DNA of 62,581 bases, counting the filler, from Nemertoderma westbladi (taxonomy: Eukaryota; Animalia; Xenacoelomorpha), in NCBI GenBank assembly GCA_032718475.1. It is 3 parts of 3 records of this genome, joined end to end, with 100 filler letters (N's around TTAATTAATTAA, not from the genome) between each part and the next. Parts side by side here need not be neighbours in the genome. Positions count along the whole stretch, not along the records: positions 1 to 31,017 come from JAUCBJ010006601.1; 2 more parts are not named here. One strand, given 5' to 3'. The position numbers and the translations under genes were made by a program. This document shows, piece by piece, positions 4,229 through 59,690 of the stretch (positions are counted from its first letter, which is position 1; every line of letters starts with the position of its first letter). Below the pieces are notes generated by a model that saw only the letters and a list, made by a program, of their open reading frames with translations, was not told the origin of the DNA and searched no databases.

Positions 4229-4384
4229 TTAAATACCTAGCGGTTTTCAGATTTGGAAACACCATTCAGCCATTCAATGGTGCATTATACAGTTATAATA
4301 TATCATAAAAAAAATTCGACATATTTTTGACCAAAATGGTGTACCCCCCCCCCCCCCCCCCCCCCCCCTTAACTGCTTAAAGGG

Positions 4385-9805: not shown

Positions 9806-10646
9806 ATAGTGTCGTAATTCAGTGACACGCCCCCCCCCCCCCCTAATTTTTCTACAAATCGTTTTGAGATTACATGAAATTTGAAACAGAGATAGTTTCA
9901 CCTCCCGACCACTGACTGGGTGAGCCAGAATTTTTATTTTTGCTTTCAATCTTTAGCTACAAGCGTTTAAAAAAAGTGTCTCCAGCGATATTACACCAGT
10001 TACACCGCAGTTATTCCTCTACCTTATAGCTGTTTGTTGGTACCAATGGAATGCTGGCAATACAAGGATTCAAAATATGTAACACAATTTGAACTTCGTT
10101 GAAAAATAGCTGAGATATGAGCGTTCAAATGTTGCATGGTTTTGCAACGACGCGAGGCTATTTTATTCTATTAATAAATAAACCATATTCTGGAACATTT
10201 TTTAAATGTATGAATAGCTACGTAATAGTATGATTAAAGATGTAATGCATTGTTGCCCAGCTACGTATTTGGATAAACAAAATATTCCAGATTATGATGC
10301 ATTTATTAAATAGAATAAAATAGCCTCGCGCAGGTGCAAAACGATGCAACATTTGAACGCCCATATCTCGGCTATTTTTCAACGAAATTCAAATTGCGTT
10401 ACATATTTGTAATCCTTGCAGGGCCAGCTTTCCATGGTAGAAGAATAACTGCGGTGTAACTGGTGTAATATCGCTGGAGACACCTTGTTTAAACGCTTGT
10501 AGCTAAAGATTGACAGCAAAAATAAAAATTCTGGCTCATCCAGTCAGTGGTCGGTCGGGAGGTGAAACTATCTCTGTTTCAAATTTCATGCAATCTCATT
10601 ACGATTTGTCAAAAAATTAGGGGGGGGGGGGGGGGGCGTGTCACTG
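9806..10646. mobile_element. Foldback/palindromic MITE, right end cut by an LTR
   Basis: About 385-bp inverted arms (9820-10205 vs 10278-10646), from CAGTGACACG(C)n to (G)nCGTGTCACTG, with a short spacer; the right arm abuts the LTR end at 10647. Confidence 0.75.
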
Positions 10647-11814
10647 TGTTAGCGCTTTTAGACCTTTGGCAGTTTAACCCACCAAATTAGGATGTCTTCT
10701 AGATAATAAATCACTTTTAGTCTATGACAAGTATTTAATTCACTACACTAGTCGAAACCAATCTGTGCGCGATCATTCACCCGCTGGATATACCCGGGAG
10801 ATTGGGTTCGACGGCTTAATCTTATTGCTATGTAAGCTTAATGTATTATTCGACTGACAGTATTATATAATCTCTGACAATATTATTCACCTTCGGGGAA
10901 TATTAACAGTTCCTTTAGGACGTGGCGCTCTATCTATATACACAGAGTTATGACTTAAACTACTCACAACGATATGGCTTAGTTATAATTTACATATATG
11001 GCGCATTCTTTAGGAAATGCTTCGTTATCAGGCTCACTCATACACAATGCTGCACACTGATCTGCCGATCTTCACTGATTTTAGTTATATATAAAAGGAA
11101 CACGGACCGACTCATGTAGGGTTTATCAAATAACATTAGATTCACTTCAAACCACTTTAACATAAGTCACAATCGTTATATGTAACCTTTCTCTCTTACC
11201 TTCGGTATATCAAGAATATTGGGTTTCGGGGTTATTTATCGTTATTTCAAATATAATAATTCATCAACCATATTATGAAGAACTGACAGTAAATAGCAGT
11301 ATAACAATATAAAAGTATACACAGTGATTCAGTGTGTGTTAAGTTCATTAGTTTGTTTTGGTTTGATAACGGATATATGCCCTTTATAATTAAGCCTACT
11401 AGTGTTAGACTAAAACAGAAAAGCACAAAATATTTACAAGCCGTTCTCTCCTGGCTCAGGACAGAAAGACCAACAACACTGAAAACTGATAAGAATAACC
11501 TTATTTACAAAGGCTTCCACCCAACACAGAGAAAGAGCATACAGATAGGAAAATTCAGTTCAGTAGATCTGTGATAGGTCGAAATCAAAATCAACTCAAA
11601 TCCTATTGGCAGATACAGAAGCAGGGCTGTGGGGCAACTTTCCCAAGCTGGTTGGACAATCAAACGTAGCCCAGATCCCTTCGCACAGCGAATCAGCCAA
11701 TCAGCCGGTAGCTTGCGCTATTCGAGTTATAGATCCCCTTTTAGAGTATTCAGCGCCTGGGGGGGAACTGGTTAACAAGGCAAACGAATCAGTTATCCCA
11801 CAAAAGCTTTTACA
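10647..11814 (-). repeat. LTR of copy B
   Basis: Minus strand starts TGTAAAAGC after GGGAGCGG and ends GCGCTAACA; homologous to 27991-29174. End could be 10645. Confidence 0.7.
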
Positions 11815-14022
11815 CCGCTCCCAGAAAATGGGATTTAAGTCTATAAAATATACAAAATCACAATTTCTAATATACATAAATACTCTAAACAGTTAGTCTT
11901 TCTTGCGCGGACGGCGTTTACGCAGTTTTTTAAAGTTAGCCAGAGTCTTTTTCTCTTTGGGGGGAGCCACTTTACTAGGAGGGCCATAACTCCTGGGTGA
12001 AGGGTGCAATATGATTGCATTAGAAGGTTTGGGTTTACGGTCGGTGTCTCGTCCATTTCGATATGCTTCTCCTCGAGCTGATTTTCCTCCGCTTGTCATG
12101 GGATACGTTCGTCCAAAACTCTCGCAGAGAATAGGGTTTTCTAAGCTTGATATCTTCTTTGAGATTCGAGATTTCCCAATCGAACTGAGATAAGGCCAAT
12201 TCGTTTATCGATTGGACTTACTGTTATAACTTACGTTTATCTGAACAAACGCAGGTTTCTTTTTTGATCTTTATAGAATAGCGTTTAACTCGTTTCGTAC
12301 AACGCTTTCCTTCACCTTGATGAAGGGTTGTATCGCGTTAAACGGGACGACCATACGGTTGGATAGTGATATTAGGTGTCTGCGTCATAATCCGGCTAGG
12401 TAAGATGGGCGGCTAGCTAGAAATCACTGTCGGAGTGTTACCGATTAATTGTTAGGGTAGCACTAGATCTTGAACAGTGAATACCGTCCGCAAGGATCCG
12501 CGACACCACCAGGATCGCAGGTCTGAGGTCCAACTAAGGAATGAGGAGGTTTGACCGAGTATTCCGGGACTCTGATCGTAGGTTTACTCTAGGATCGTTA
12601 GAGCCGAGTGAGCATAGGTGATACGTCAAACAAGTTTCGCTCGAAACTCCAGTAAATATAACGAACACAACTGTGTTTAACACAACGTTTCCGTGGATGT
12701 TTATGTCTTTCCGTTTATTGGCTGGGTCTAGGGCATTTACCGTAATAATACCAAAGACGCACGTCTGGTAGGGGAAACGCGGATGATATTTATTTGTTGT
12801 TACAATGCTTCTATCAAGAATTCCAAATATATGTTGGAGTTACCGCGTTTATTTGTTTCTTTAATGTCTTTTCTTTCGAGCCGATTTCGAATAGAATTTT
12901 CGCATTCGAATTTCAGTTTATGGTTCCGACTCCGCTAGGCAGGATATATAGTCGACATAGTCCGTATTGTGTAAATCGATAGGATGATCAGTAGTTAAGA
13001 AGCCCATATACGTACCATTACGCTGCGTATATCGAGCAGCGAATTTTCTATAGTCCAACTCGCGCGAGCTGCTCTTGGGACATTGGCGGTTCGATATAAC
13101 GACCATCGTCCTCCGCAGCAGTTGGACTAACGTCGCCGCGTATTCAACAAACGCTTGTAAAGTAGAGTATATCGCTCCCCGATACCAAGACCATCTTCTA
13201 TCAACTCCGTCATATCTGCTATATATGAGTTTATCCATATTATAATGAGTTTATATTTAGGCGAGCGGGCGTCGCTGCCTACCCAATCAACCCCCGGACA
13301 GTACGAGATCCTCAGCGCCGATGTGTCGTCGCCGCTGTACTTTCGCCAACGACGTAGCCGCACAACGACAACGACAACCGGCACAAGTCACTCGACTGTC
13401 CGTCCCAAAGGCTTAGATACACCTCAGGTTCTTACTGGAGAGTTAGGGTTACTTTCACAATTGCGACTCGCTACTGTAAACACACCTTAGTAGTAACATT
13501 CGCCTATAAACTCACAAATACCACACACACAACTTGTCACAAATTACACACACTCGGGTCACTTGTCCGTTAGTCAATGCCTTCCAGAATGTCACTGTAT
13601 TATTATGTATCCTTGGATACTATCAGTACACTATTTATTCCCTATGCTATTCAATGGGACAAGCTTTCTATTGTTCTCTTAACTCAATTCTAATTCTAGC
13701 GTGGTTGTTGCTATGGTGACATTATGTAAAGCTAGCGGTAGAATTAGGGTAATTCCAATGCATACAGATCTGGGATGTTATTTAATAGTAATTCTTTAAT
13801 GGTCAATGTCCTGTTTTATACATGACTTTATGAATTTTATCGGCTATTGACTATGTTTGGGAGACTTTCGCACACTCATACGCATAATAAGATAAATCTC
13901 CGCTCCCTTGATCTATTAATTAATGGAATTTTGGGAATGTTATAAATTGCATAAAAATGGCAATTTATTAAATTCATTAAGCGACATGAATTTAAATTTA
14001 TTCCCTGAAATTTTATTATTTG
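10647..14022 (-). mobile_element. BEL family copy B: inverted 3' half (spacer, internally deleted extra ORF, 3' LTR)
   Basis: Reverse complement aligns by eye with 22885-29174, except for a 2.7-kb deletion (junction about 12047) and a divergent LTR U3; peptides WYY.KCPRP and KKLRKRRPRKKD match ORF 24214-27912. Confidence 0.9.
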
Positions 14023-14289
14023 TCAGTTACATTAAAGAGTATATCCAACTAATGCAGCTTTTTCTCAACCGCAACCCTGCATCTCAGAAATATTCCCTCC
14101 CCACAATCAATATCCGGTGACTGGCTGGGGCTCGGTGGTCTGTTAAGTCACGTCTCCAGCATCGGCGTTTTTCCCCCCTGGTGTTGGGATAACGGCAACA
14201 AAGAGGCAGTTGTTAAACAGCAGCAACACCCGAACCGAGAACTTATTTCTCAACAGCCCGGTAGCTCCAGTAGTTCAGATACTGTAGAG

Positions 14290-17200: not shown

Positions 17201-20200
17201 AGAATTCATGGAAGAAAGCCCGAGGAAAGAACAAGTGTGCACAACACAACACAGGTTAAAGTAAGTAACATCAAACCCAAATGTGCATTGTGCGACGGGC
17301 CCCATCGCTTGAGTTGATGTGATGAATTCTTGAAGAAATCCCTAAAGGATAGACATGATGTCATGTGGGATAAACGGTTGTATTATAATTGTCTCAGACA
17401 AGGACACCAATGGCGAACCTGTTACTCTGACGCGAGGTGTGCTAAGTGTGGCGCGAAACATCATATCTTGCTGCACACAGAATTTGAAAGAACTAGCACG
17501 AGTCAGGTAAGTGAGTCCGAACTACATGTCCAATTCAGTGATGTGAACGACATTGACCACAGCTCTGAGATGGAAGGATTTTACACAGACGAATTCTCCG
17601 ACGAAAACAAATCCTGTTATATGATAAACACCGCGGTGTATCGAGCGCTTACATATGAGACTGAAACCGATAATGAAGTCCAATCGACTATTCCGGACCG
17701 ACAACCATCTTGGAAAGCGCCAACTTCCAACGTCGGAATTCGGGAATTCCCAGTAGTTCAGCGCATTGTCCACTCCCCAGGATGAACTAGGAGAACATAG
17801 CATAAGGTCAGTAAAAATGGTGGCGATAAAGAACTTTGCTACCAGCCAAGTAGAACCTTACAACTGGGATGAAGACCATTTTACCCAGCAGCATGATATC
17901 CCTAGATTCAACACCGACTACCCAGGGGTGCAGATATTGATCGGCCAAAATGCGCATAAGGCGCTTGAGACATTAGAAAAACGGCCTGCTCAACCGCAAC
18001 CATTACAAACATATGCGGGAAGAACGAGAGTAGGTTGGTACTTCACTGGACCTTCCCGTAGAACACTCATGGAAATATTACATAAAGACAAAGTATATCA
18101 GGTGAGTGAATGGGAAGAAGAAATCAGTGAGGGAGAGACCACAACTTAGGGAACACCATACTCCTCAGATAATGATGATATTAACCAATTATTCGATGAG
18201 GAAAATACAATCACCGAAAATGAAACCTGGTGAAACCAAGTGAACCTGTGCCATCTCATCAATCATGGCGGACAATTCGACTACAACGACGAATTAATGA
18301 GGTGTTAGATCGATAACACGATAAGATTCGTGATGAACACGCCGTACAATTCTTTACTCAAGAAGCCGTAGAGCCTAATTCCTATGACAAGGCCCTATCT
18401 ATCGAGGAGGAGAGAGCCAAGCAGATTCAGGAAACGACTACCCGTTTTCTTAAAGATCAAGGTAGATATGAGATTGGTCTTCCGTTCCGACGGCGAGAAC
18501 CCAACTTTATAAATAACCGACCCTTAGCGGAGAAGAGAATCGCGCAACTACATCGGCGTCTTACGGCCAATGCTTCAGCTAAAGAGATGTATAAGACCCA
18601 GCTGAAGAAATTCATCGATAAGGGATACGCGGAGCGAGTACTGGAAGAAACACCCATAACTGAGAGAACGTATTATCTAACACATCATTACGTTCCCAAA
18701 CCCGGTAAACCCAACGAAATCCGGATAGTATTCGACGGCTCCACCCTTTACATGGGCCAATCCCTTAACTCTGAGTTGTTGCCGGGACCCAACTTACTCC
18801 AATCCTTGTTGGGAATACTCTTAAGATTACGGCAATATTCTATCACTTTCGCTTTGGATATAGAAGGCATGTTCTTACAAGTTAAGGCGCTGGATAGGGA
18901 TCGAGACAACCTACGATTTCTGTGGTGGCCTGAAGGAGACCTCAACCAAAAACTGGTGGAGTACTGGATGACCATCCATGCTTTCGGGATCATCTCGAGC
19001 CCCTCGAACGCTTGTTCAGTAGTGCATACCACTGCTGATGACAACCGAGACGCCTTCTCTAAAGCGGTTATCGACAACATCAAACGGGATATATACATGG
19101 ACGACAATTTAAAGTCCCTCCCATCGGTGGAAGAAGCCATTGATGTTGCCAAGGGAATGGTAGAGTGCTTGAAACGCGGTGGATTTCGACTAACCAAATT
19201 CACTAGTAACTCCCGTGAGTTTCTGGAATCGATCCCGGTAGAAGACCGAGGTGTTAAAGATCTGGACCTTATCAAGGACGATCTTCCGGAAACCAAGACG
19301 CTTGGTTTGAAATGGGGCACGGAGAGAGATATCCTGTTTTTCCAGCTAAAACAGCGAGATAATCCAGTTAGAACTAAACGGATTTGTCTAAGTATCCTGA
19401 GCACTTATTTCGATCCATTGGGATTTATTAGCCCAGTTATATTGGTTGCTTGGAGTTTAGTGCAACAAATGTGGCTTGAAAACCACTCGTGGGACGATCC
19501 ACTTAAGGGAGAACTCCTAAAGAAGTGGATTAAATGGGAAGATTCTCTACCATCTATCGAGAACTTTACGATTTCCCGTTCATATTTTGGTCACGTTCTC
19601 CCCACGTATTCCTATCAACTCCATGTGTTTGGAGACGCCAGCGATATGGGAATAGGTATAGTAGCCTACCTGAGGGTTGAAACTCCGGATGGAATTAAAG
19701 TTGCCTTGGTTACCTCTAAGGCCTTGATAAACAACAAACTAAGAGTTCCTCGAGCTGAGTTAAAGGCGGCTCTATACGCTACAGCCATCGGCCGGAATGT
19801 AACAGAACAGATCGACTATCCACTGGAGAAAACTGTCTATTGGACTGATGCTTTACTCGTTTTGGAGTATATAACCAATGAAGTCTGTCAGTTCAGCATC
19901 TTTGTTACCAACAGAGTAGCCATTATACTTAGTCGCACTAATGTAGATCAATGGAGACATTGCCCTGGGACGATTAATCCAGCCGACATCGACTCCAGAG
20001 GAGCAACTCCTCAAGAACTGATAGATACTCCAGACTGGTTAGGTGGACCCGACTTCCTAAGTAAAGAAGAGGATGAATGGCCTCCTCATCTTACCACGGC
20101 TGAGATTAGACAAGCCAAGGGAGCGGAGAAAGTCAAACCCAAAACCCAGACGAGTAAACCAAAGTTATTTAAACCCGTGATAGATCTGTCTGTACTACAC

Positions 20201-21976
20201 ATTTCCGGGGATAACGCTGTGAATCTAAACTCCCCCTCCACAAATAAATCTGTCGTGGAAATTAGAGAAAGAGACTGGAAATCTGGAACACCAGATGTCT
20301 AGCAGGGACTCTCACCTCTCCTGCAGAGAGCGATAAATCACTATAGCTCCTGGAACCAGCTTTGTAAGGCCGTCGTGTATTTGAAGCGATGCTTCCATCA
20401 TCACTACTCCAGGACAAAGATCGCTAGCGATACCGCTTCACCGACATCCGAGCAGGTCCATGCTATTAAAGATCTTCCCAAATACAAAGTATCGGATAGT
20501 TTTCTGACGGAAAAGATCAGTTATCAAGAGCATGAAGAAACCAATAAGCAGATACTGAGACTCCTGCAATGCTATGAAGATTCCGATAAGTATTTCCTGT
20601 TGTTGAGAAATCCACAGACGCGCTTAAGGCATCGTTTCTCTGACACAATGATAGATGGGTTAATACATGTTGGAGGGAGACTAACTAATGCTCCATTATC
20701 CTTTGACACTAAGTTTCCCATACTCATTAGAAATCTTGAAATACAAATCAGGATGATTGTAGATGTTCACAGTAAGCTTTACCATGCTGGTAGAGAACGA
20801 GTTCTTAGCAAAATTCGAACTCGCTATTATTTTCATAGACCCCGTAGAGCTCTGAACCAAGTTCTTAGGAACTGTATACCCTGTAGGAAAGCATTCAGTA
20901 GGCCTTTAACACAGCGAGAGGCAGAATTACCTAGGGAACGAGTAAGCTTCTATGAACCACCCTTTACTAATACTGGTGCGGATTTATTTGGCCCTATTGA
21001 AGTATATCGTGCTAGGACTATAGTCAAGCGATAGTGTGTCATCTTTGTCTGTATGACTTGTATAGCGATCCATCTAGATATGGTGAACGATCTATCTGCC
21101 AACAGCTTCATACTGAGTTTACGCCGACAGATCGCTCGCTTTGGAACTAGCAACACGATGAGATCTGATAAGGGAACGAACTTCATTGGCGCCAATAATG
21201 AGATCAAAGCTTACGTTAAAGATTGGAACCAAAGACAGGTGGACGATCAGCTAAGGGTAACAGCATCTAGCTGGACCTTCAACGCCGCTGACGCCCCTTG
21301 GTGGGGAGGAAGTTGGGAGAGATTAATAAGGAGTGTGAAGACTGCATTTCACTTAGTGCCGTGCCGCGCGTATCTCACCGACGAACTTTTGCGGACGTTA
21401 ATGGAAGAAATCGCCGCCTATCTTAACGAGAGACCGCTTATGCCAGTCTCATCGAGTCCTGACTCCCTAGAAGCGCTAACACCCGCGCATTTCCTACTGA
21501 AGAAACCTGTAGCCATGCTCCCACGATCGGAAATCACGGACGGAGACGAATACTGCCGACAAACTTGGCAACTTATGCAGTTATTAACCCGTCGTTTCGC
21601 TGACCATTTCGAAAAACATTATCTGCCTACGCTACAACTTCGAACCAAGTGGTTTGCGCAGCAAGAAAACGTCAGCGCCGGAGACATGGTCCTTATTGTG
21701 GAATCAGATCTTCCACGTAAGCGGTGGCAGACCGGTCGTATCATCGAGACTCATATATCCGATGATGGTTTAGTGCGATCAGTAGAACTCGTCGTCATGC
21801 GACGTAACTTTAAGAAACCTGGAATTGTATTCGAAACACAGCAACTCAATCGCCCAGTCGGTCGTTTATGTTTACTGAAAAGAGACAGAGAACTATCCGG
21901 AAACTATGGAAGGCAAGATACTCTTCCCACGACCACCTCCCTAATCCAACAAACATCTAGGGACTCCCCAACGTAA
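14290..21976 (+). pseudogene. BEL/Pao gag-pol pseudogene
   Basis: DUF1759-like KFNG..KWLPF..LSNGDKLRFLIECLEG; Cys/His knuckles CALCDGPH and CLRQGH..C..CAKCGAKHHILLH; RT IRIVFDGS, LDIEGMFLQV, YMDD; RNase H LHVFGDAS, PRAEL, WTDA, NPAD; integrase H..HAG..CIPC, DLFGP, SDKGTNF, WERLI. Roughly a dozen stops or frameshifts. Confidence 0.95.
15170..15385 (+). repeat. Coding minisatellite in gag, (A)nEAERK repeats
   Basis: GCGGCAGCGGCAGAAGCGGAAAGAAAA-type units translating RKAAAAEAERKAAEAE. Confidence 0.9.
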
Positions 21977-22499
21977 CCGCGTCTGGAGTGGGTGTGTGAC
22001 TATATTATTTTATATTTGTTTTTATTATTTTTATATTTATGTATGTATTATTACGTAATTTTATTATAATCGTTTTCTTTAATTTTATTTAGCAGAATGT
22101 TATTTTACCGATTATTTAGTAGATTAGTGCAATATATACTTATGTTTATTACTTAATTACTTATATTATATATTTAGTGCAACGGTGAGAAATAATTATT
22201 TTTCTCTTTCCTTACTGTCCGTATCATATTATAAATACGTGACTACAGTAAGATGAAATATCCGTACTTATTAAAGTACAATAAGGCTCCTACTATACTC
22301 AAGTATTATTGGTAGGTAGAGTATTAGGAATGCAAAGTTCAGATCCTCGTGTCTCGGCTAAACCAAGCTCTGGGTAGACCTTGGAAATGACTTGCCTCTT
22401 CTCACTGACATTGCTTCTTGCAATATTGCTCTCATACCGTATATTAAATAATACATATAGTAGCATGATGTCCCTTTAACAGTAGCGTAAAATGCAAAA

Positions 22500-22890
22500 T
22501 AAATCTGTTAAACCCTTTAACCATCTGCCATTCTAGTCGATTAAGATATCGCGACACCCACTGATATACTTGAAAGACAAAATTCTAGAATCAGTGGTTA
22601 ACGTCCCCAGACATGTTCTGGAATAAATCGGTGCCCATCTTAAATATTAAATATTTAATAAATAACTGTAAAATCTGTCAAAACAAATATAATAGAGTAA
22701 ATGCTTACAAGTTAACTCTAGAAAATCTATAAATCAAAATCTGTTAAAGTTTAGATCCTTTGAAATTCTTGTCGATTAAGATATCATAGCACTTACCGAT
22801 ACTCTTAAAAAGACAAATTTTCTAGAATTAAGGATCCTAGTCCCCAGACATGTTCTGGAATAAAATTGTGTCTATTTTAATATTAAATAA
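22500..22890. repeat. Diverged direct duplication (about 237-bp period) in the pol-ORF3 spacer
   Basis: GTCGATTAAGATATC and GTCCCCAGACATGTTCTGGAATAAA each occur twice. Confidence 0.7.
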
Positions 22891-23687
22891 TAAATGTTAC
22901 GGGAATAAATTTTAAATTCATATCCTCTCATGAATTTGATAAATTGTCATTTTATACAATTTATAACATTCCCAAAATTCCATTAATTAATAGATCATGG
23001 GAGCGGAGATTCACCCTATTAAGTATATTAGTGTGCGAGAATCTCCAATATATAGTCAATAGCCGATAAAATTCATAAAATCATGTATAAAGGGGAATAT
23101 TGACAATTAAAGAATTACTATTAAATAGCATCCCAGATCTGTATGCATGAGAATTACCCTAATTCTACCGCTAGCTTTCCATAATGTCACCATAGCAACA
23201 ACCACGCTAGAATTAGAAGCGAGTTAAAAGAACAATAGAAAGCTTGCCCCATTGAATAGCATACGGAATAAATAGCACACTGCTAGTATCCAGGGATACA
23301 TAATAATAACGTGGCATTCTGGAAGGCACTTGACTAACGGACAAATGGCCCGACTGTGTACAATTTGTGACAGTTGTGTGGAATTTGTGCGTTTATAGGT
23401 GAATGTTACTACTAAAGTGTGTTTACAGTAGCGAGTCGCAGTTGTGAAAGTAACCCTACCTCTGCAGTAAGAACCTGAAGTAAATCTAAGCCCTTGGAAC
23501 GGACAGTGGAATGACTCGCGCTGGTTATTGTTGTTGTTGTGTAGCTACTACGTTGGCGAGAGGCACATCGACAACAGTACATCAGCGCTGAGGATCTTGC
23601 GCTGTCCGGGGGCATTGAGGGGTAGGCAGCGACGACCGCTAGCCTAATTATAATTAATTATAATATCGATAAACTCATATAGCAGCT

Positions 23688-24213
23688 ATGACTGAGTTGA
23701 TAGAAGATGATCTTGGTATCAGGGAGCGATATACCCTACCATTGCAAGCGTTTGTTGATAGTTTAATACGCGGCGACGCTAGTCAAACTACTGCGGAGGA
23801 CGATGGCCGTTATATCGAACCGCCAATGTTTAAGGAACAACTCACGCGTGAATTGGACTATAGAAAATTCACCGCTCGCTATACGCATCGTAATGGTACG
23901 TATATAGACTGGTCATCCTATCGATTTACATGATACGGACGATGTAGACACCGAAAGGGAAATGATTCTATTTAAATATCATACCCAGCGGAGTTGGAAC
24001 GATAAACCGAGAATCGAACACGAGAATTCTATTCGAAACCGACTCGAAAGAGAAGACATTGAAGAGCCGGATAAACGCAGTGACTTCAACGAATACTTGG
24101 AATTCTTGAGAGAAACATATCTCAATGTAGCCAGTCAACAAAATGTAGAAACTCGATATCCTCAAGGTATACATCATGACCCTATGATGGAACTCAAATG
24201 ACTCTATTTCACT
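23688..24213 (+). pseudogene. Disrupted N-terminus of the extra ORF
   Basis: MTELIEDD.. start; 11-nt deletion at about 23907 relative to copies B and C; continues in the frame of 23962 and 24214 with one TGA at 24199-24201. Confidence 0.75.
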
Positions 24214-27200
24214 ATGATGTATCTTACCGCCGATCGACCTCTACCTGTTGTACCGGATAGCTTCGAACAGATGGAGGAATATTGCAAAACCGGAGAAAGA
24301 TCACCCGCGTTTCCTCTACAAGACATGCGTCTTTGGTATTATTGCGATGAATGCCCTAGACCCAACCAACAAACGGAAAGACATAAACATCCGCGGAGAC
24401 GTTGTGCTAAACACAGTTTTACTCGCTATACTTACGGGAGTTTCGAGCGAAACTTGTTCGACGTATCACCTACGCTCGCTCGACTCAAACGATCATTAAA
24501 TAAACCGATGATCAGAGTTCCGGAATACTCGGTCAGACCTCCTCATTCCCTAGTGAGACCTCAAACTCTTGATCCTAATAGTATAACGGATCCTCCTGAG
24601 CTGTACTCACTGTTCAAAGATCTCGTGTTACCCGAACAATTAATCGGTGGCACCCCGGTAGTGGGTTCTCTAGATATTCGCCCATCATACCTAGTCAGAT
24701 TGGGACGCGGACATCTAATATCGCCGTTCAACCCGTATAATCATCCCTGTTTAACCCCGATACAACCCGTCACCGAAGTCGAGGAGAGCGTTGTACGAAA
24801 CGCATTAGACGCTATTCGGCAGAAGATCGGAAAAGGAACTTACAATTGTTTGGAGAAACGTAGATTGCAGCAGCAAGTCCAAGCAGTAAAGGAATTGGCC
24901 TTACCCCAGTTCGATCGAGAAGTCCAGAACCTCAAGGAAGACATCGAACTTGGACAAACCTATTCTCTACAAGAGTTTTTAGACGAATGCTTCCAACGAC
25001 AAGCGGAGGAAAATCAGCTCGAGGAGAAACACATCGAAATGGATGAGAGAGAAGAAGCAGCTTTAGCCCAACCAGAAGCTCAAATCCTTATGACTGATCT
25101 CTATTCCAAAACCATCATTCATCCCTCGATGGTTCCCCATTTCGGAGACAAACTCTTCGCCACAGTACAACCCCAACCGGTTGATATCAACCTAAGATCT
25201 CGAGATCTTATGGCTGACGCTCCTGTGTTACAACGTCCGCCAATCGAGGCCGCTCGTGTCGACGGTATACTCATTGAACCTCCGGACAATCGAGCGGATC
25301 TTGTCCGTCGTATGGTACACGAACCTTTACCGAACTCGTTTTATGGGATCAAAGACCACCCTTATTATGTCAATCTAACTCAATATTATATGGTAAAACC
25401 GGAAGATCCTACACAAAGTCTGGGGTTTCTACCACTAATAAATCCTCTCGATCTTGTCGAACTCGAACAGCTGCAGAAACATCTGGATCAGTTAGTGAAA
25501 GTAAACTCATTCAGAAAACCCTACAATGTTTCCAGAATAGAGAAGGATATAATGCCTCCATATAATCTCGATGGATTTATTAAAACTCGATTAGTCCACT
25601 GGAATCTTGACGTATTATTCGAGGAAGAGAGAATACAACGATATGGAGATGTAGAGACGTATACTACACAGTATCTGAAGTATAGGGATCTACCTAACGC
25701 TAGCGAATGCGCCACCTTGTGGCATCCGGTGGGGATGACCTTAGAAAACGCCACTAAAGAGTGGAACGAAACTCTTAACGTTATCAAAATGTATGGAGTC
25801 GTCACTTACGATAACGAAGGTAGCGTTCCAGTTGGAGAACTGGGAACTACGCGCATGATACATATACGAGGACTAGCTGTTTCTACCCACGTGTTTACTC
25901 GAGCGTGTTCCGACGTAATTGATTATTCTTTTGAGACTCTCACCGAGATACAAAAGAAACTCCGACATGGACAATTCGAACTCACGCAGCGCTATGTCAC
26001 CGACACCGAGCGCAAACCGGCCATGGGTATAGATGGATCGATGTTACCTCAGCCAGTGCTCGAGATGTTGTTTAACGAAAGAATCCTTAAAATCGGCTCA
26101 GCTGTTTATGGAAATCTCCAAAACGACTTTAGGAACATGGAGAATATCCCATATCCTTTCGTAGACACCCAGCTGATTGCTCCCTGGGCAGAAGGCCAAG
26201 GTTTCTTCCGAACTATGTATGCCAATACACCCAGCGGCATCAATAAAGTACAACGAACCTCCATCGGACATCTTGCCTTCCAAGAATACGGATGGAATTT
26301 CAAAGTCGGAAACCCTATCAACTATCAACAAGTATATGGAGATCATTATTCTCGATTATACTTCGACGGACCATTGACAGCACCTGGTGTCGTGTATAGC
26401 TTCATGAGTGTTCCACTTCGTCCCTCATTAGCTATATACACTATCTTCGAGAACGCCGCACTTGCCGGTTGGCTAGCCGATGTGTGCAGTCGTACTATAC
26501 GCGCCCATCCCTTGATACTTGGAACCAAACTCGCCAAGCTAGATGAACACAATAAATTCATCCGCTTCGAATGCTTTAGGCGCTTTCTGACTCCGTTCCG
26601 TAACGTTGATAGTCAGTTCAAGGACCGCGCTCTGACCAAGCTCAGCCTAAGAGACTCAGCTGCTGAGAAGTTAGACAGCGCTGGATTCGCCATTTTCAAG
26701 GACGTTTGTATACAGAACTTACATTCCTCTGTTATACAAAGACCCCGAATCCCCACGGGTTATTCTATCGTAGAAGTTCAGACAGTGGGTTCGCTTGAGG
26801 AGACAGCTACACCTACCTCAGCTATGCAATTGGAAGACGAACCAATATGCTTAGAATCCGAGGAGATTCAGCCCACAGCGCCCCGGAGCAGTGACAACGA
26901 CTACGTCCTGGAATGGTATCAAGGTCCACAATGTCTCACCACGTACGATTATCGGCATGCCAATTATGTCTCTAGGAAACGTTGCCGATTATGCGCATCT
27001 CGAGACCATTTCACCCCGGTGGACTCCAACGTACCCTGTTCCTACTTCCATGAACAACCTACGATGGAGATCTATTGTGCGTATTGTAGACTCAATAACT
27101 TACACATTTTCGCAGTCTGCCCCCAATTTATTACTCAATGCCATCATTGTCAGTTAAAAGGACATGCAAGTTTTGATTGCCCTTTCAACCGAGATCTGGA

Positions 27201-27912
27201 AAGCGTAGATGAAATGATTACCCTACGCTACATTCGAGCCTGGGAAGCGAATGCAGATCTACACTGTGAGTCACGTCATCGATATTACCCTGGACGTGCC
27301 TATGAAGGAGTTTATGCGTTTCACCCGTATCTATTCGTGTCCGTTGAACAAAAATCTCGCACACCGAGTTACGAACTAATGAAGCGTGTTGGCGAGAATA
27401 TTTCGACCAAATTTGTTCGTAAATATCTCAGGAACATTAATCCCAATGATCTTAATTCCTATAACTTGATCAACTTCATCCGTCAAGATCCGGAATATGA
27501 TGACTTGTTCATCAACTCGCATCCAGAACTACAGGAAGTTCATAGACGATCCTATGAATATAGAGCCCGAGAACGCGAGTTAGAAAGAACCATCAAACCG
27601 AGGAAATTTCTCACTACTCACGGTCCACCTACTGCTCTCGTGCAGACGACTCGTCAGGGACCAGTAAGAGCTGCTGTCTTGAAACGCGCTCTGAAGGTTG
27701 TTCGACCTTGCTCCACTGAGGTTGATATCGATCAACCGGGTACCTCGACCGGCGGATACACCGACTGTAACCCTAAACCTTCCGATGCAATTGTATTGCA
27801 CTCTTCACCCAGGAGTTATAGCCCTCCTAGTAAAGTGGCTCGCCCCAAAGAGAAAAGGACTCTTGCTAGCCTCAAAAAACTGCGTAAACGCCGTTCGCGT
27901 AAGAAGGACTAA
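24214..27912 (+). CDS. Retrotransposon accessory ORF3, 1232 aa: putative DnaQ/DEDDy 3'-5' exonuclease-like domain + CCHC zinc knuckles + basic tail
   Basis: Uninterrupted ORF; GVVTYDNEG (ExoI-like), LPQPVLEMLFNERILKIGSAVYGNL (ExoII-like), FVDTQLIA, TSIGHLAFQEYGWNFK, GPLTAPGVVYSFMS (ExoIII-like); CHHCQLKGHASFDC is an exact CX2CX4HX4C; ends KKLRKRRSRKKD. The ORF itself is certain; the domain call is by eye. Confidence 0.7.
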   Translation: MMYLTADRPLPVVPDSFEQMEEYCKTGERSPAFPLQDMRLWYYCDECPRPNQQTERHKHPRRRCAKHSFTRYTYGSFERNLFDVSPTLARLKRSLNKPMIRVPEYSVRPPHSLVRPQTLDPNSITDPPELYSLFKDLVLPEQLIGGTPVVGSLDIRPSYLVRLGRGHLISPFNPYNHPCLTPIQPVTEVEESVVRNALDAIRQKIGKGTYNCLEKRRLQQQVQAVKELALPQFDREVQNLKEDIELGQTYSLQEFLDECFQRQAEENQLEEKHIEMDEREEAALAQPEAQILMTDLYSKTIIHPSMVPHFGDKLFATVQPQPVDINLRSRDLMADAPVLQRPPIEAARVDGILIEPPDNRADLVRRMVHEPLPNSFYGIKDHPYYVNLTQYYMVKPEDPTQSLGFLPLINPLDLVELEQLQKHLDQLVKVNSFRKPYNVSRIEKDIMPPYNLDGFIKTRLVHWNLDVLFEEERIQRYGDVETYTTQYLKYRDLPNASECATLWHPVGMTLENATKEWNETLNVIKMYGVVTYDNEGSVPVGELGTTRMIHIRGLAVSTHVFTRACSDVIDYSFETLTEIQKKLRHGQFELTQRYVTDTERKPAMGIDGSMLPQPVLEMLFNERILKIGSAVYGNLQNDFRNMENIPYPFVDTQLIAPWAEGQGFFRTMYANTPSGINKVQRTSIGHLAFQEYGWNFKVGNPINYQQVYGDHYSRLYFDGPLTAPGVVYSFMSVPLRPSLAIYTIFENAALAGWLADVCSRTIRAHPLILGTKLAKLDEHNKFIRFECFRRFLTPFRNVDSQFKDRALTKLSLRDSAAEKLDSAGFAIFKDVCIQNLHSSVIQRPRIPTGYSIVEVQTVGSLEETATPTSAMQLEDEPICLESEEIQPTAPRSSDNDYVLEWYQGPQCLTTYDYRHANYVSRKRCRLCASRDHFTPVDSNVPCSYFHEQPTMEIYCAYCRLNNLHIFAVCPQFITQCHHCQLKGHASFDCPFNRDLESVDEMITLRYIRAWEANADLHCESRHRYYPGRAYEGVYAFHPYLFVSVEQKSRTPSYELMKRVGENISTKFVRKYLRNINPNDLNSYNLINFIRQDPEYDDLFINSHPELQEVHRRSYEYRARERELERTIKPRKFLTTHGPPTALVQTTRQGPVRAAVLKRALKVVRPCSTEVDIDQPGTSTGGYTDCNPKPSDAIVLHSSPRSYSPPSKVARPKEKRTLASLKKLRKRRSRKKD

Positions 27913-27990
27913 CTGTTTAGAGTATTTTTATATTTTAGAAACTGTGATTTTTGATATTTTATAGAATTAAATCCCATTTTCTGGCAGCGG

Positions 27991-29174
27991 TGTAAAAGCT
28001 TTTGCGGACATAACAAGTCATTTTTCTCCGCAATATACCGTGTAGGTGCTTTAGCGGACATAACAAGTCATTTTCTCCGCAATGTACCGTGTAGGTGCTT
28101 TAGCGGACATAACAAGTCATATTTTGCCGCAATGCGCCTAATCCTCTAAACGACTGGAACTCAGATGACGAAATCTGTCAGCTGATTTACTGTAAACGTG
28201 GAACCTCTCTTTGTTCTGCTCAGCCAATCAGAGCGATTTTCATTTTATGTTGGACAAGGGCCTATGTAAAACCGCGCAATGCATTACGGTCTTTGTTTAC
28301 CTTTTTCTGAGCCTCGGAACACCGGCTTAGAATTCTTCTGTGCTTCTGTAGAAGTTTCAGACTTTGGCCAAACATTAGATGGCTTTGATTACAGGAACGT
28401 AAATCTATTATCTGGAAACATTACCTGATGCACTGGCTGCATTTACCTGACAAACTGATTGAACTCAATGCACTACGTAACACATATTGATTGTTCACCG
28501 CATTATTTTACTTCTATTATTAATTGTTGTTATATTGATGTATATTGCTGATATATTTGGAGAATACCGATGAATAATCATAAAACCCCAATCTTCTTGA
28601 TTACTGAAGGTAAGAGGGACCGGTTACCTGTAGCAATTGCGACTTACATTATAGTGGTTTTTGTGTGAATTAAATGCATTTCATAATCCCTACATGTGTC
28701 AGTTGCTATCCTCATTATATATGATCAAATTCAGTCACGGTCGGCAGATCAGTGTGCAGTAGTGTGAAGTCGTGTGAGGTAGTGTGACAGAAAATAAAGC
28801 ATCTCCTAAAGAATGCGCTACTTACGAAACTCAGTAGCCATCTAGTTGTGATTAGTATAAGTCATAACTCTGTTTTTATACTTAAAGCGCCATGTCCTAA
28901 AGGAACTGTTAATATTTCCCCGAAAGTAAATAATATTGTCAGAGATTATATAGTAACGATCAATCGAATAATACAGTAGGTCTGCACCGCAATCACTTTC
29001 AAAGCACCCGAATCCAGTCTCCCTTAACTGTGGGTGAATGATCGCGCATAGACTGGCTTCGGCTAATGTAATTTCATGTGCACTAAATAATTGTTATAGG
29101 CTAAAGTCGATTTATAAACAAGAGGACACCTAAAATTGGCAGGTTAAACTGCTAAAGGTCTGAAAGCGCGAACA
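27991..29174 (+). repeat. 3' LTR of copy A
   Basis: Starts TGTAAAAGC after GGCAGCGG, ends GCGCGAACA (or AACACA at 29176) where homology with copy B stops; about 50-bp tandem repeats at 28004-28135. Confidence 0.7.
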
Positions 29175-29179
29175 CAACT

Positions 29180-29820
29180 AGAAGTTAGATGGGAGAATAG
29201 GTCTATTATAATGTCCCTGCTTTCAGAGGATGACATTCTTGGAGCCAATGATACTGGGAGGGTGGGTCACTTCCATGTTCAAAGAAATTAATTGCGATGA
29301 AACATCCTTTTCTGCAAACAGCTTAGGTACACAGAATCGTTCAGGGAGGACCTGCCCCTTTCTAATTAAGTTTGAATGCAAGGCAAATCGAGATCAAATT
29401 CTGAAGCTGAAGCAAAGTAAAGAACCATTCAGTAAAATTTACATAAAGAAAGATGTTCACTCCACTTGTAGAACAGACTGTCTGCGGAAGTAAGTGGAAA
29501 AAGTATACTGGAAAATGCGGATGCTGATATACGCTATGATCAACGACAACGAGCCAGTAGTGTAGGCCTACTGTATGCAATGGAGTTGTTATATCACCAC
29601 CTATTTCAAATAGCACTTTCAAAATTTCACCTATTTCACATGGAGATTTTGTAAGAATTTGTTCATGTAATAGTGCAGGTATACGTGACAAGGTTAGATT
29701 GAATTGGTTTTTCGAATAATTTGTTCAGTTTGACATTATACTTAAAGATGAAATAAAGACAGAGACTGTAAGTGTAGCATTCCAGGGTTCCAGGCTATTA
29801 CTTGCCCGGATACTGCTGCT
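29180..29820 (+). mobile_element. Decayed LINE (CR1/L2-like) ORF1 and start of endonuclease
   Basis: RTCPFLIKFECKANRDQILKLK..IYIKKD resembles LINE ORF1; ICSCNSAGIRDK resembles the start of an APE endonuclease. Confidence 0.45.
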
Positions 29821-31017: not shown

Positions 31018-31117
31018 NNNNNNNNNNNNNNNNNNNNNNNNNNNNNNNNNNNNNNNNNNNNTTAATTAATTAANNNNNNNNNNNNNNNNNNNNNNNNNNN
31101 NNNNNNNNNNNNNNNNN
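31018..31117. other. Assembly gap with artificial linker
   Basis: N-run with TTAATTAATTAA (stops in all six frames) at 31062-31073. Confidence 0.95.
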
Positions 31118-34100
31118 AAGTGTGGCCGTTTGTTTAATTTTCCTTAGCTTCGTGGTTGCATTTCCTTTAGGAAATGCCTTTCTCGTATATTTTAATTTAA
31201 TTATGCAATCCGCAGTTTTACTATTTACCCTGTTGGGGGTGTAGACGTAGAGGCTAAATATATAATTGTACAAACCCCAATTTACCACGGTATTGGTAGT
31301 GGTAATAAATGAAAGGCACGGGGGTGTCCTTCGTTGTTCCCACAAGCATATCCCCCCACATTTGTCAACCACAAGTAGCCATCCCCTGTCTCCATCACAG
31401 CCTCCATAATTTCGGTTTATGAAGAAGTGTCGGCTAAATGAATTCAAAATATGTCAATTAATTATATTAAAAAATTGAAATAATTAGTATTTTGTCCACG
31501 AAGCTAAGGAAAATCAACTACTTTCGCTAAGAAAGATTTTCCTTAGCTGAGATGGTCTATTCATAGTGGGCTATTTTACTTGTATGAGGCAGATTTGGGG
31601 TTTTTTGATAGGTGAAAAAACTAGCCTTTAAAAGTACCCTGAAATTTTGCATGTATATACTACTCGACGAGGCGCATCTTTTGGGCCGGGTCTCATATCC
31701 AGGAAAAATCTGGTTTCCATGGCAACGGACTTCAAAAAAAGTCTATGTATTTCAAGTCAATATTTAGAACTCTATTTGTAGGAAAACTATAATAGATATA
31801 AACTTGGGGTTTCGCAACACAACTATAAGGTCCATAGCAGATCCGATTGAGGCTAAATAGAAAATCCAGTTACCTTGGCAACCGGGATAAACAGATGTTA
31901 AAATTTATAAAATGTTAATTTGAGGCCTAAGGGCAAGGTGTTATGACTTGGGACCAACCCCTACCCCCACTATATAACTTATTCTGCATCCGAATTACAT
32001 TGTTCTATTTTTCAGTTACCATGACAACCGCTGAAAACAGATGTTTTTATTCAAAACTTATTCATTTGGACATAGACTTCACGATAAAATTTTACAAAAC
32101 TGGGTATGTGTTATCTGGACCACTAGTTGGAACTTTTAGTGAAACTTAAATTATTCCAGAAATTTAGTTACCATGGTAACTGTAGTTTATTAAACTCTAT
32201 ATCATTCAAATCTATATTGATAACTCTATTTGTAGAAAAACTGTAATATATATAAACTTGGGGTTTTGCAACTCATCTATAAGATCCATATCCAAGCCGT
32301 TTGAGGTTAATTAGAAAATACAGTTACCATAGCAACAAGTCTAAACAGATGTTAAAATTTATAAAATGATAATTTGAAGCACAAGTTAATAGTATTATGA
32401 CTTGGGACTAACCCCTACCCCCACTATGTGACTTATTCTGCATCCGAATTACATTGTTCTATTTTTCAGTTTCCAGGAGAACCACTGCAAACAGATGCAT
32501 TTTGATAGACAATCGGTAATTTGGACATAAACTACAATATTTTCTGAAACTCAGTATATGTGTTATCTGAACCACAATCTGTACTGAATTTTTTTTCAAA
32601 GGTTAAAGCAACAGTTCCAGAGAACTCTAGTTTCCATGGGAATAGAAGTTAATTATTGACAATTGCTACTAAACGAGGCTAAAGCAACGAACCAAAGTGT
32701 GGCCGTTTGTTTAATTTTCCTTAGCTTCGTGGTTGCATTTCCTTTAGGAAATGCCTTTCTCGTTTATTATTCATAAGTTTTAAAAACTGCAAGTTATGAT
32801 GCAGTAAGTTCCACGAAGCTAAGGAAAATCAACTACTTTCGCTAAGAAAGATTTTCCTTAGCTGAGATGGTCTATTCATAGTGGGCTATTTTACTTGTAT
32901 GGGGCAGATTTGGGGTTTTTTGGTCGGGGAAAAAACTAGCCTTTAAAAGTACCCTGAAATTTTGCATGTATGTACTACTCATCGAGGCGCGTCGTGTGGG
33001 ATGGGTCTCATATTCAGGAAAAATCTGGTTTCCATGGCAACGGACTTAGAAAAAAGTCTATGTATTTCAAGTCAATATTTATAACTCTATTTGTAGGAAA
33101 ACTATAATACATATAAACTTGGGATTTCTCAACTCAACTATAAGGTCCATAGCAGAGCCGATTGAGGTTAAATAGAAATTCCAGTTACCTTGGCAACCGG
33201 GCTAAACAGATGTTAAAATTTATAAAATGTTAATTTGAAGCCTAAGGTTAATGTGTTATGTCTTGGGACCAACCCCTACCCCCACTATATGACTTATTCT
33301 GCGTCCGAATTTCATTGTTTAATTTTGCAGTTACCATGACAACCGCTGAAAACAGATGTTTTTATACAAAAATAACTCATTTGGACATAGACTTCGCGAT
33401 AAAATTTTACGAAATTGGATATGTGTTATCTGGACCACTAGTTGGATCTTTTAGTAAAACCTAAAACATTCCATAAATATCTTGTTACCATGGTAACTGG
33501 AGTTTATTAAAGTCGATATCATTCAAGTCTAAATTCAATACTCTATTTGCAGCAAAATAATGTAATAAATATAAATTTGGGGTTTTGCAAGTCATCTGTA
33601 AGGTCCATATCCACGAAGCTAAGGAAAATCAACTACTTTCGCTAAGAAAGATTTTCCTTAGCTGAGATGGTCTATTCATAGTGGGCTATTTTACTTGTGT
33701 GAGGCAGATTTGGGGTTTTTTGATAGGCGAAAAAACTAGCCTTTAAAAGTACCCTGAAATTTTGCATGTATATACTACTCGACGAGGCGCATCTTTTGGG
33801 CCGGGTCTCATATCCAGGAAAAATCTGGTTTCCATGGCAACGGACTTCAAAAAAAGTCTATGTATTGAAAGTCAATATTTATAACTCTATTTGTAGGAAA
33901 ACTATAATAGATATAAACTTGGGGTTTCGCAACACAACTATAAGGTCCATAGCAGATCCGATTGAGGCTAAATAGAAAATCCAGTTACCTTGGCAACCGG
34001 GATAAACAGATGTTAAAATTTATAAAATGTTAATTTGAAGCCTAAGGGCAAGGTGTTATGACTTGGGACCAACCCCTACCCCCACTATATAACTTATTCT

Positions 34101-41492: not shown

Positions 41493-41496
41493 TTAT

Positions 41497-41654
41497 TGTA
41501 GCGTCCACTCGATGGCTTACCTATGTTCGGACACTTAACTCGTTTCCTTGAGTATTACGTATTCTAGAACATATAAAACACAACAATGTTTAACAATAAT
41601 AAAATAGCTCACTAGTAGGTTAGTTATTTATATGTGGCATTTACATCCCCCACA
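41497..41654 (+). repeat. Gypsy 5' LTR
   Basis: TGTAGCGTCC...CCCCCACA; contains AATAAA. Confidence 0.95.
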
Positions 41655-41655
41655 T

Positions 41656-41670
41656 TGGTGACCCGGACGT
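41656..41670 (+). promoter_or_regulatory. Primer binding site, tRNA-Trp-like
   Basis: TGGTGACCCGGACGT, one mismatch from the complement of the eukaryotic tRNA-Trp 3' end (TGGTGACCCCGACGT). Confidence 0.7.
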
Positions 41671-41719
41671 TAGATTAATTACCTAACTTAATAATATGAT
41701 ATTAATATGATATCACATT

Positions 41720-44266: not shown

Positions 44267-44687
44267 GTCTGGCAGTAGGGGATTAGTTGAGTTGACTTTG
44301 ACAGATATAAAGCTCAATTCTCGGTCTGTCTGTCAGCCTTTTCTGTCTTTAGGTAGGTACTGTCAGACGGTAAGCTACCGGTACTTGTCAGCTTGTTAAT
44401 CGGTGCGGTACCTTTTATTGTGTGTATCTGCAAGCAAACCCTCTGTCAGTCTTTCGGTACCAGTATATATTTATATTACGGTGCTTTGTTTGTCTACTAA
44501 GGTAGGCTAGGCTAGGTTTAGGCTTGAGACTAAGACTAACCAACTAGCTGCTAGCAGACTAGCCCTAAAGCTGTAAAGTACCAGTAACAAAACCTTTTTT
44601 TGTATAATTTTAATACTGTAACAAGTACTTATACCCTGATACCTGTCTGCCTGTTGCCTGTGGGCCTACTACTTATAGTCAATCATA

Positions 44688-56144: not shown

Positions 56145-56239
56145 CTCGACTCACTGTTAATTCTCAACTAGAACACATCAATGATCTTAAACTTTCGTGC
56201 CCTCACTGGGGGGGGGGGGGGGGGAGGGGGGGGGAGTGA

Positions 56240-56398: not shown

Positions 56399-56506
56399 TT
56401 ATGATGTAAGTTATGTAAACCTGTATGTATGTTATATAAGTGTAAGGTGTATCCAAGGATATGGAATTGATTATCTATAGAGGAGAAATGTCAATTCCTT
56501 ACTCAC

Positions 56507-58571: not shown

Positions 58572-59690
58572 CTAGTCGCAATCGTAAAAGTAACCTAACT
58601 CTCCAAGGAAAACCTGAAGTACATCTAAGCCTTTGGGACGGACAGTTGAGTGACTTGTGCCGGTTGTCGTTGTGCGGCTACGTCGTTGGCGAAAGTACAG
58701 CGGCGACGACACATCGGCGCTGAGGATCTCGTACTGTCCGGGGTTGATTGGGGTAGGCAGCGACGCCCGCTCGCCTAAATATAAACTCATTATAATATGG
58801 ATAAACTCATATATAGCAGATATGACGGAGTTGATAGAAGATGGTCTTGGTATCGGGGAGCGATATACTCTACTTTTACAAGCGTTTGTTGATAGCTTAA
58901 TACGCGGCGACGTTAGTCCAACTGCTGCGGAGGACGATGGTCGTTATATCGAACCGCCAATGTCCCAAGAGCAGCTCACGCGTGAGTTGGACTATAGAAA
59001 ATTCGCTGCTCGATATACGCAGCGTAATGGTATGTATATGGGCTTCTTAACTACTGGTCATCCTATCGATTTACACAATACGGACTATGTCGACTATATA
59101 TCCTGCCCAGCGGAGTCGGAACCATAAACGGAAATTCGAATGCGAAAATTCTATTCGAAATCGACTCGAAAGAAAAGACACTTAAGAAACAAATGGACGC
59201 GGTAACTCCAACGTATATTTGGAATTCTTGATAGAAGCATTGTAACAACAAATAAATATCACCCGCGTTTACCCTACCAGACGTGCGTCTTTGGTATTAT
59301 TACGATAAATGCCCTAGACCCAACTAATAAACGGAAAGACATAAACATCCACGTAAACCGAAACTTGTTGACGTATCACCCATGCTCACTCGGCTCGAAC
59401 GATCCTGGAGTAAACCTACGATCAGAGTCCCGGAATACTCGGTCAAACCTCCTCATTCCTTAGTTGGACCTCAGACCTGCGATCTTGGTGGTGTCGCGGA
59501 TCCTCGCGGACTGTATTCACTGTTCAAAGATCTAGTGCTACCCTAACAATTAATCGGTAACACTCCAACAGTGATTTCTAGCTAGCCGCCCATCTTACCT
59601 AGCCGGATTGTGACGCGGACACCTAATATCACTATCCAACCGTATGGTCGTCCACGTTTAACGCGATACAACCCCTCATCAAGGTGAAGG
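58572..59690 (+). mobile_element. BEL family copy C: spacer and 5' part of extra ORF (same deleted subfamily as copy B)
   Basis: Very close to the reverse complement of about 12310-13470; shares B's deletions relative to A; bounded by the gap and by an LTR at 59691. Confidence 0.9.

Follow-up and report, generated by a model that had tools for sequence, protein, structure and literature searches.

A non-envelope third open reading frame with a putative DEDDy exonuclease-like domain and zinc knuckles in a BEL/Pao retrotransposon of Nemertoderma westbladi

A stretch of 62,581 nucleotides from Nemertoderma westbladi (assembly GCA_032718475.1; called the window in the following) was analyzed with regard to a BEL/Pao long terminal repeat (LTR) retrotransposon and to the large third open reading frame (ORF3) located downstream of the pol gene of this element. 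The gag-pol part (14053-21976, plus strand), recognized from Pfam matches, a frame map and an identity of 35-38% to the pol sequence of another BEL element in the window, is 5′-truncated and, according to the frame map, interrupted by about 9-10 stops or frame changes. The Pfam matches comprised DUF1759, RVT_1 (weak), Peptidase_A17 (E-value 2e-36), Integrase_H2C2 and DUF5641. This corresponds to the Pao-type gag and pol of Belpaoviridae, with the order reverse transcriptase (RT), RNase H region, integrase. The RT contains the motif YMDD, and Pfam did not detect a protease in this broken copy. In the N-terminal part of the gag region, short Ala/Glu/Arg/Lys-rich repeats are encoded (15183-15377), likely forming a coiled coil.

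The 3′-end of the element (27983..29176, plus strand) was delimited by sequence motifs and by the ends that its LTR has in common with a sister copy. It consists of a primer-like tract, which is purine-rich but not pure (27983-27990), and a 3′ LTR of 1186 bp (27991-29176) with TG and CA ends and an AATAAA at 28793, matching the 0.2-1.2 kb LTRs with a preceding polypurine tract found in Belpaoviridae. In another sample, a contig of low depth runs across the end of this LTR into the flank with zero differences; contig evidence stems throughout from four public runs of at most three samples, and depth is not equated with copy number here. Self-BLAST of the window did not reveal a 5′ LTR. The element is cut at 14022, where it abuts an inverted sister copy (copy B) head to head, and its length without the 5′ LTR is at least 15.2 kb.

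Pol and ORF3 are separated by a spacer (21977..23687, plus strand) that was characterized by GC profile, self-BLAST and contig tiling. Its first ~1 kb is AT-rich, with a GC content of 0.17-0.38 across 22000-23200, and self-BLAST identified two repeat units spaced by ~236 bp (22501-22659 and 22737-22895), one of which is omitted by contig joints. Signals for a separate expression of ORF3 are likely to be located in this region. Immediately past the pol stop, a purine-rich tract followed by TG (21984-21996) looks like a primer tract with the start of an LTR, possibly left over from a 3′-end that the element had before it gained ORF3.

ORF3 remains open over 1232 amino acids (aa) counted from an ATG (24214..27912, plus strand), whereas 500 shuffles of this DNA gave stop-free frames of no more than 207 aa. 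A preliminary description of this locus had placed the open frame between pol and the 3′ LTR, where env would be expected, and had noted the absence of a transmembrane run. Both statements are borne out, the former by the coordinates of pol and LTR, the latter by a hydropathy scan with a highest 19-residue mean of 1.19. Together with a basic C-terminus, this profile is not that of an envelope or fusion glycoprotein with a transmembrane anchor and a fusion peptide. The sequence motifs quoted in the same description were found again at the same residues of the protein, and the N-terminal CDEC..H..C..H cluster is present as quoted as well; its first Cys, however, is not kept in the two decayed sister copies, both of which have a Tyr instead, and no homologue of the cluster was found. 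At the opposite end, 14 of the last 30 residues are Lys or Arg (27820..27909, plus strand), constituting a predicted nuclear localization signal, and the DNA encoding this part is retained in a sister copy at 89% identity.

What did not hold was the gene start at 24214, as coding-like pieces run further upstream to ~23688. This broken 5′ part of ORF3 (23688..24213, plus strand) is made up of two coding-like pieces (23688-23930 and 23908-24198) with a frame change between them, the second piece sharing the frame of ORF3 and being followed by a stop codon at 24199-24201. At this codon, 97.7-100% of the summed contig depth differs from the window in each of the four runs (differences between window and contigs: 40 listed among 2825). 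Since coding-like pieces lie upstream of this stop, the 1232-aa frame is what survives of a longer gene, which comprised roughly 1400 codons and is interrupted by two 5′ breaks in this copy. The fact that ORF3 is open while gag-pol is broken has a P-value of 0.015 for the 3.7 kb, a stretch chosen post hoc; for the whole gene, counting the two 5′ breaks, the P-value is 0.14 and not significant. A domestication of this ORF3 copy was considered and is unsupported given the latter value.

Each of the 30 bins into which 10300-29600 was divided is covered by contigs from the four runs, mostly with a likeness of 90-99% and at depths far exceeding that of the low-depth contig that extends past the LTR into the flank. 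These observations indicate an old and abundant family. The path from pol across the spacer to ORF3 is bridged by diverged deep contigs at 21814-22007, 21863-22121, 22302-22640, 22812-22996 and 22886-23066, and three joints (22643>22900, 22644>22888 and 22650>22862) span a dip in depth between the internal repeat units. For the interval 21700-23200, 32 pieces, 11 joints and 24 of 487 loose ends were listed, and the share of contigs continuing into unlike DNA was 0, 0, 0 and 0.1 in the four runs. Separately, copy B ties 22885 to the 5′ part of ORF3, the ORF3 end and the LTR. Pol, spacer and the ORF3 side form one high-copy unit, with the linkage between pol and ORF3 being a tiling path of short contigs in which no single record spans both.

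Copy B (10645..14021, minus strand) comprises the spacer end, the 5′ part of ORF3, the ORF3 end and an LTR (11814-10645). It lacks the equivalent of 25049-27754 (~2.7 kb), including the exonuclease-like domain and the knuckles described below. Its LTR of 1170 bp has both ends in common with 27991-29176 and lies in a different flank. The 3′ halves of the two sister LTRs (10645-11814 and 27991-29176) are ~75% alike, while ~500 bases of their 5′ halves are nearly unalignable; the internal regions beside them are 80-89% alike. In addition, a joint in run X4 omits 24046-26831. Family copies without nuclease and knuckles exist, i.e., the gene was lost in some copies, and the deletion in copy B together with the X4 joint implies that ORF3 is accessory and dispensable in cis. 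The family also has recurring internally deleted derivatives, since the pol parts 18185-19940 and 20133-21835 are skipped by contig joints in each of the four runs. At the junction 14021/14022, two 5′-truncated family members meet head-to-head on opposite strands, reflecting either a deletion between back-to-back insertions or an assembly join. A further family fragment, the decayed fragment C (58574..59690, plus strand), matches 23434-24772. It begins at a gap consisting of an N run and linker (58472-58571), and its truncation may stem from the assembly; a second N run with a short linker is located at 31018-31117.

Residues ~520-760 of ORF3 (25771..26493, plus strand) form an exonuclease-like domain delimited by profile, atlas and alignment evidence, and we are confident, well short of certainty, that they adopt a DEDDy fold with a D-E-D-E-type site. 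The best NCBIfam match of the domain was RNase D (E-value 0.048). In the ESM atlas, residues 490-800 matched an unnamed cluster first (0.94), followed by PF01612 clusters (0.93, 173 of 256 features), and PF01612 was carried by 25 of the 30 matches. A profile built from 80 RNase D proteins of enterobacteria gave ORF3 5.9 bits, compared to at most 3.3 bits in 1000 shuffles, and a profile-profile comparison yielded a probability of 75.8 over 48 columns. Another RNase D profile, built from 46 sequences (11.4 bits compared to at most 4.0 in shuffles), was discarded as biased, some of its members having been found via ORF3.

A HMMER scan with residues 300-1110 against 1.84 billion proteins yielded three matches (P0001, P0002 and P0003), of which the first two were kept and P0003 was dropped as a low-complexity match. 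P0001 aligns to residues 611-757 of ORF3 (pairwise E-value 1e-12), and each of the motifs Exo I, II and III is matched in its alignment with RNase D proteins. When a profile of ORF3 and P0001 was run against 201 bacterial genomes, 69 weak matches were obtained (best E-value 0.002 per genome). Among the matches in genomes for which a PF01612 scan was also made, 16 of 21 were inside PF01612 matches, and 19 of the 20 best loci contain an RNase D-like domain.

Several results weigh against this assignment of the fold. Pfam, NCBIfam and PDB gave no match to the domain past the cut-off, and the thresholds of the ESM atlas were not measured for parts of proteins. AlphaFold reached a pLDDT (predicted local distance difference test) of only 32 for the domain as a single sequence and of 52.5 with P0001 and 31 RNase D core fragments as seeds, the latter model being confident only over the seeded core. 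Foldseek found nothing at an E-value of at most 0.001 (best E-value 4.1, EXD2), and the VIA fold search nothing at a Z-score of at least 5 (best Z-score 4.0). The seeded model, in which the aligner had placed the first strands of P0001 in a register considered wrong, was not counted as evidence, nor were its weak EXD2/NrnC Foldseek rows. Less weight is attached to word-index homologue searches, which had no matches and by which P0001 and P0002 were overlooked as well. Neither the domain nor profile A3 led to a meaningful match when PDB was searched by sequence, and ORF3 or A2 as query yielded nothing in tblastn against phages, in PHROGs or in scans of viral and metagenome sequences. Overall, a DEDDy fold is very likely on the grounds of sequence comparison and is unconfirmed by structure prediction.

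Concerning the active site, Exo III corresponds to Y742-x3-E746 in 56 of 56 alignments in the register of P0001. The Y-x3-D pattern expected on a helix is here present with Glu for Asp, the same as in P0001, and a helix is predicted at residues 737-764 with moderate confidence. The preliminary description had equated Exo III with PLT..VY. That register puts a Ser at the decisive position, so that the enzyme would have looked dead, and was abandoned in favor of the P0001 alignment, which shifts Exo III 14 residues downstream. Exo II, an acidic residue following the K-h-G strand in DEDDy exonucleases, corresponds to residue 634, again in 56 of 56 alignments; it is Asn in the window copy and acidic in P0001. 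In each of the four runs, contigs making up at least 99.9% of the summed depth deviate from the window at the Exo II codon, so that the Asn is private to the window copy and cannot be taken for the state of the family. Exo I, a DxE expected where the first strand ends, is most likely represented by D533/E535. P0001 has four acidic positions in the pattern D-E-D-E plus the Tyr, and ORF3 is equal to it at three of the four.

Downstream of the nuclease-like domain, Pfam and alignment delimited a triple Cys/His knuckle module (aa 924-989) with a conserved tail extending to aa ~1036 (26983..27321, plus strand). Three knuckles had been reported for this part of the protein, and the module is indeed there, but only knuckles 2 (CX2CX5HX4C) and 3 (CX2CX4HX4C) are regular CCHC knuckles, knuckle 1 being irregular. 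The Pfam match to zf-CCHC_3 (E-value 9e-4) was under the cut-off, and the ESM atlas gave leads only (best 0.86). The knuckles of P0001 resemble retroviral nucleocapsids in PDB (E-value 1e-4). Four such modules, one in ORF3, one in P0001 and two in P0002, share 18 invariant columns, including those of the tail past the knuckles (E..A....R.R....W/Y.G...F). When ORF3 is scored with a profile built from the three modules of P0001 and P0002, it reaches 19.8 bits compared to 5.8 in shuffles, a comparison that is partly circular as these modules were found via ORF3. The module is predicted to bind RNA. Taken together, the Pfam matches of pol, the atlas, the HMMER relatives and the RNase D-like loci uphold the initial view of a non-envelope ORF3 with a DEDDy-type domain and knuckles in a BEL/Pao family.

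P0001 (648 aa) and P0002 (633 aa) contain an exonuclease-like domain, a triple knuckle and a tail as ORF3 does, with half its length and an identity of about 18-29%. In P0002, unlike in ORF3, the nuclease is degenerate and the knuckle module duplicated. Since both proteins have both modules, the combination of exonuclease and triple knuckle is, judged by sequence, a small protein family. The contig encoding P0002 (L082, 3685 bases) carries the gene, a purine run with TG (2064-2074), CA with TGG (2959-2965) and an ORF from 3390. The distance from TG to CA is ~890 bases, and the ORF after TGG is acidic and still open at the contig end. These motifs suggest the layout ORF3, LTR, primer site, gag, without pol on the contig. 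The contig resembles an LTR element in circular or collapsed form.

For the function of ORF3 we lean, tentatively and with somewhat less than even confidence, toward a soluble DEDDy nuclease with knuckles that acts in the nucleus on RNA 3′-ends and thereby weakens small-RNA silencing of the element. ORF3 would be expressed separately from gag-pol by means of signals in the spacer, and the basic C-terminal signal would bring the protein into the nucleus. There, the knuckles would hold single-stranded RNA and pass its 3′-end to the DEDDy nuclease, which would trim small RNAs or their precursors and so weaken the silencing of the element by the host. The protein might be supplied in trans to family copies. 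Such a counter-silencing role is preferred because host DEDDy enzymes set the 3′-ends of PIWI-interacting RNAs (piRNAs) and because known belpaovirids replicate without such a gene. Trimming of pre-piRNA 3′-ends has been described for the host DEDDy enzyme Nibbler (PMC11347159). Once the fold is granted, small RNAs or their precursors are about as likely as not to be the substrate. In a more far-reaching version, an active DEDDy nuclease with a triple-knuckle adaptor would enter the nucleus and destroy or mis-trim precursors of piRNAs or small interfering RNAs, explain the high abundance of the family and move between element families as a cassette; this version appears unlikely.

A number of points count against a counter-silencing nuclease. 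At Exo I, the register that aligns D533/E535 with the DxE of P0001 arose in only two of five MAFFT modes, each of them E-INS-i, and in none of the 56 runs with default settings. Catalysis is dispensable in a relative, as P0002 lacks most catalytic positions and retains just the first of the acidic residues. The comparison of ORF3 with copies B and C gave no signal of selection: differences are spread evenly by codon position (48/44/52 and 26/25/27, respectively) and include stops, a pattern as expected of dead copies. Furthermore, Rodriguez et al. did not find ORF3 to be unambiguously linked to copy number (PMC5408684).

Clearly less probable than a counter-silencing role is that the DEDDy and knuckle protein serves replication by trimming or proofreading the RNA or complementary DNA of the element itself at the 3′-end, in the particle or before integration. 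Such a role was the first to be proposed for the DEDDy ORF3s of rotifers (PMC5408684) and was also proposed for the DEDDy domain of Dada transposases (PMC3706591), and the match of the P0001 knuckles to retroviral nucleocapsids fits it too. Known belpaovirids, however, have gag, pol and sometimes env only (PMC8742986), so that the gene is unnecessary for replication. The 1.7 kb spacer moreover parts ORF3 from pol, and the protein is not made as part of a polyprotein.

A role as a non-catalytic RNA-binding or decoy surface, with the function carried by the knuckle module, would be less likely again. In EXD1 and Maelstrom, a nuclease fold works as a non-catalytic RNA-binding surface, and P0002, with its single remaining acidic residue and doubled knuckle module, would suit such a function, as would the Glu instead of Asp at Exo III in ORF3 and P0001 and the Asn at Exo II in the window copy. 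P0001, in contrast, has all four acidic positions and the Tyr, and the Exo II residue of the window is private to this copy. If either the replication helper or the non-catalytic binder were true, ORF3 would be a useful annotation and not a surprise.

We consider it quite improbable that ORF3 and the LTR come from a separate element or a chimera, in which case the true 3′ LTR of the BEL element would start at ~21984-21996, where the tract after pol resembles a primer tract with TG. The missing 5′ LTR, a contig depth that falls below that of most of pol at 25112-27687 and has a dip at 22669-22719, and the lack of a single contig from pol to ORF3 would agree with this. The deep diverged contigs, however, bridge the spacer, joints cross the dip, run-on into unlike DNA is nil in three runs and 0.1 in the fourth, and copy B joins 22885 to ORF3 and the LTR. 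Least probable is a chance likeness to exonucleases in an unrelated or highly diverged envelope-like protein: no curated family matches past its cut-off and the structure predictions are of low confidence (pLDDT 32 and 52.5), but several sequence tests converge on PF01612 and ORF3 has no transmembrane run, a basic C-terminus and cysteines in knuckle spacing.

Besides the element described above, the window contains a number of other repeats. A Ty3/gypsy-like element (41497-56400) has LTRs of 161 bp that are 98% identical (41497-41656 and 56240-56400) and is split between its RNase H and integrase by the second BEL/Pao element. The latter has a gag at 44679-47864 and a pol from 47836 with a single stop at 51982; self-BLAST of the window found no LTR pair for it. 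From its pol end to a purine tract with TG (~54150) it extends over ~1.9 kb (52259-54160), a region with a 31-bp minisatellite (52630-53218) and without a long ORF on the plus strand. A tandem array occupies 31118-41500, with units ~0.8-1.5 kb apart and an internal repeat spaced by 454 bp. Fold-back (inverted repeat) elements are located at 9820-10646 and 3252-4247, and copy B ends beside the first.

For animal transposons, the existence of encoded proteins acting against small-RNA silencing is an open question in the field. With the preferred reading, ORF3 becomes a concrete and testable candidate for such a counter-silencing protein, and it belongs to a recurring type of exonuclease and triple-knuckle protein with a conserved tail for which Pfam families give no match passing the cut-off. 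Among PF01612 host enzymes, Nibbler/MUT-7, RNase D, EXD2 and WRN-exo have the same order of Exo I, II and III and the core that is found at aa 611-660 of ORF3, which differs from them by an insertion of ~30 aa before the core, another of ~45 aa before Exo III, and the fused knuckles. MUT-7/Nibbler proteins have a HEAT-like N-terminal domain and/or a MUT7-C domain (PMC11347159). Pfam gave no match to MUT7-C, HEAT-like or other host domains in the whole ORF3 and in its parts. DEDDy domains are also contained in Dada DNA transposases, where they are inserted within the DDE transposase (PMC3706591); here, the domain is part of a separate ORF of an LTR element.

According to the ICTV profile, Belpaoviridae are 4.2-10 kb in length and encode gag, pol and sometimes env (PMC8742986). 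The element resembles them in its Pao-type gag and pol, the order of RT, RNase H region and integrase, the 1.19-kb LTR and the primer tract. With at least 15.2 kb it exceeds their size range, which is typical and not a strict criterion, and its third gene is non-env and without a transmembrane run, whereas a third gene of Belpaoviridae, if present, is env-like.

Searches of the published literature, with most subscription journals and Repbase lying outside their scope, found no DEDDy ORF3 in BEL/Pao elements or with this knuckle module. The accessible texts of PMC6338049, PMC6431247 and PMC5718144 cite the rotifer case for such cargo and no BEL/Pao case, and the word exonuclease is absent from the main text of PMC3118150, whose unsearched sequence supplements may hold such elements. 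The architecture of exonuclease and triple knuckle is apparently undescribed.

The closest counterpart is that of bdelloid rotifers, in which DEDDy ORF3s with a DEED motif and untested function occur in Juno/Vesta LTR retrotransposons and in Athena/Terminon elements (PMC5408684). The precedent that the preliminary description had mentioned is thereby confirmed. Like the ORF3 of N. westbladi with its probable DEDDy domain, the ORF3 of Juno, Vesta and Terminon is separate and downstream of pol, encodes an RNase D-like DEDDy protein and has no transmembrane domain. Juno and Vesta are placed in the Ty3/gypsy group. The rotifer hosts are retrovirus-like and Penelope-like elements of low copy number, in contrast to the high-copy BEL/Pao family found here. 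Their DEED motif is not seen in this family either, P0001 having D-E-D-E and ORF3 agreeing with it at three of four positions. At more than 1200 aa, ORF3 also carries a triple-knuckle module that the accessible text of PMC5408684 does not describe for the rotifer proteins. With its length of at least 15 kb, the present BEL/Pao element extends putatively enzymatic, non-envelope ORF3 cargo beyond the retrovirus-like elements of rotifers.

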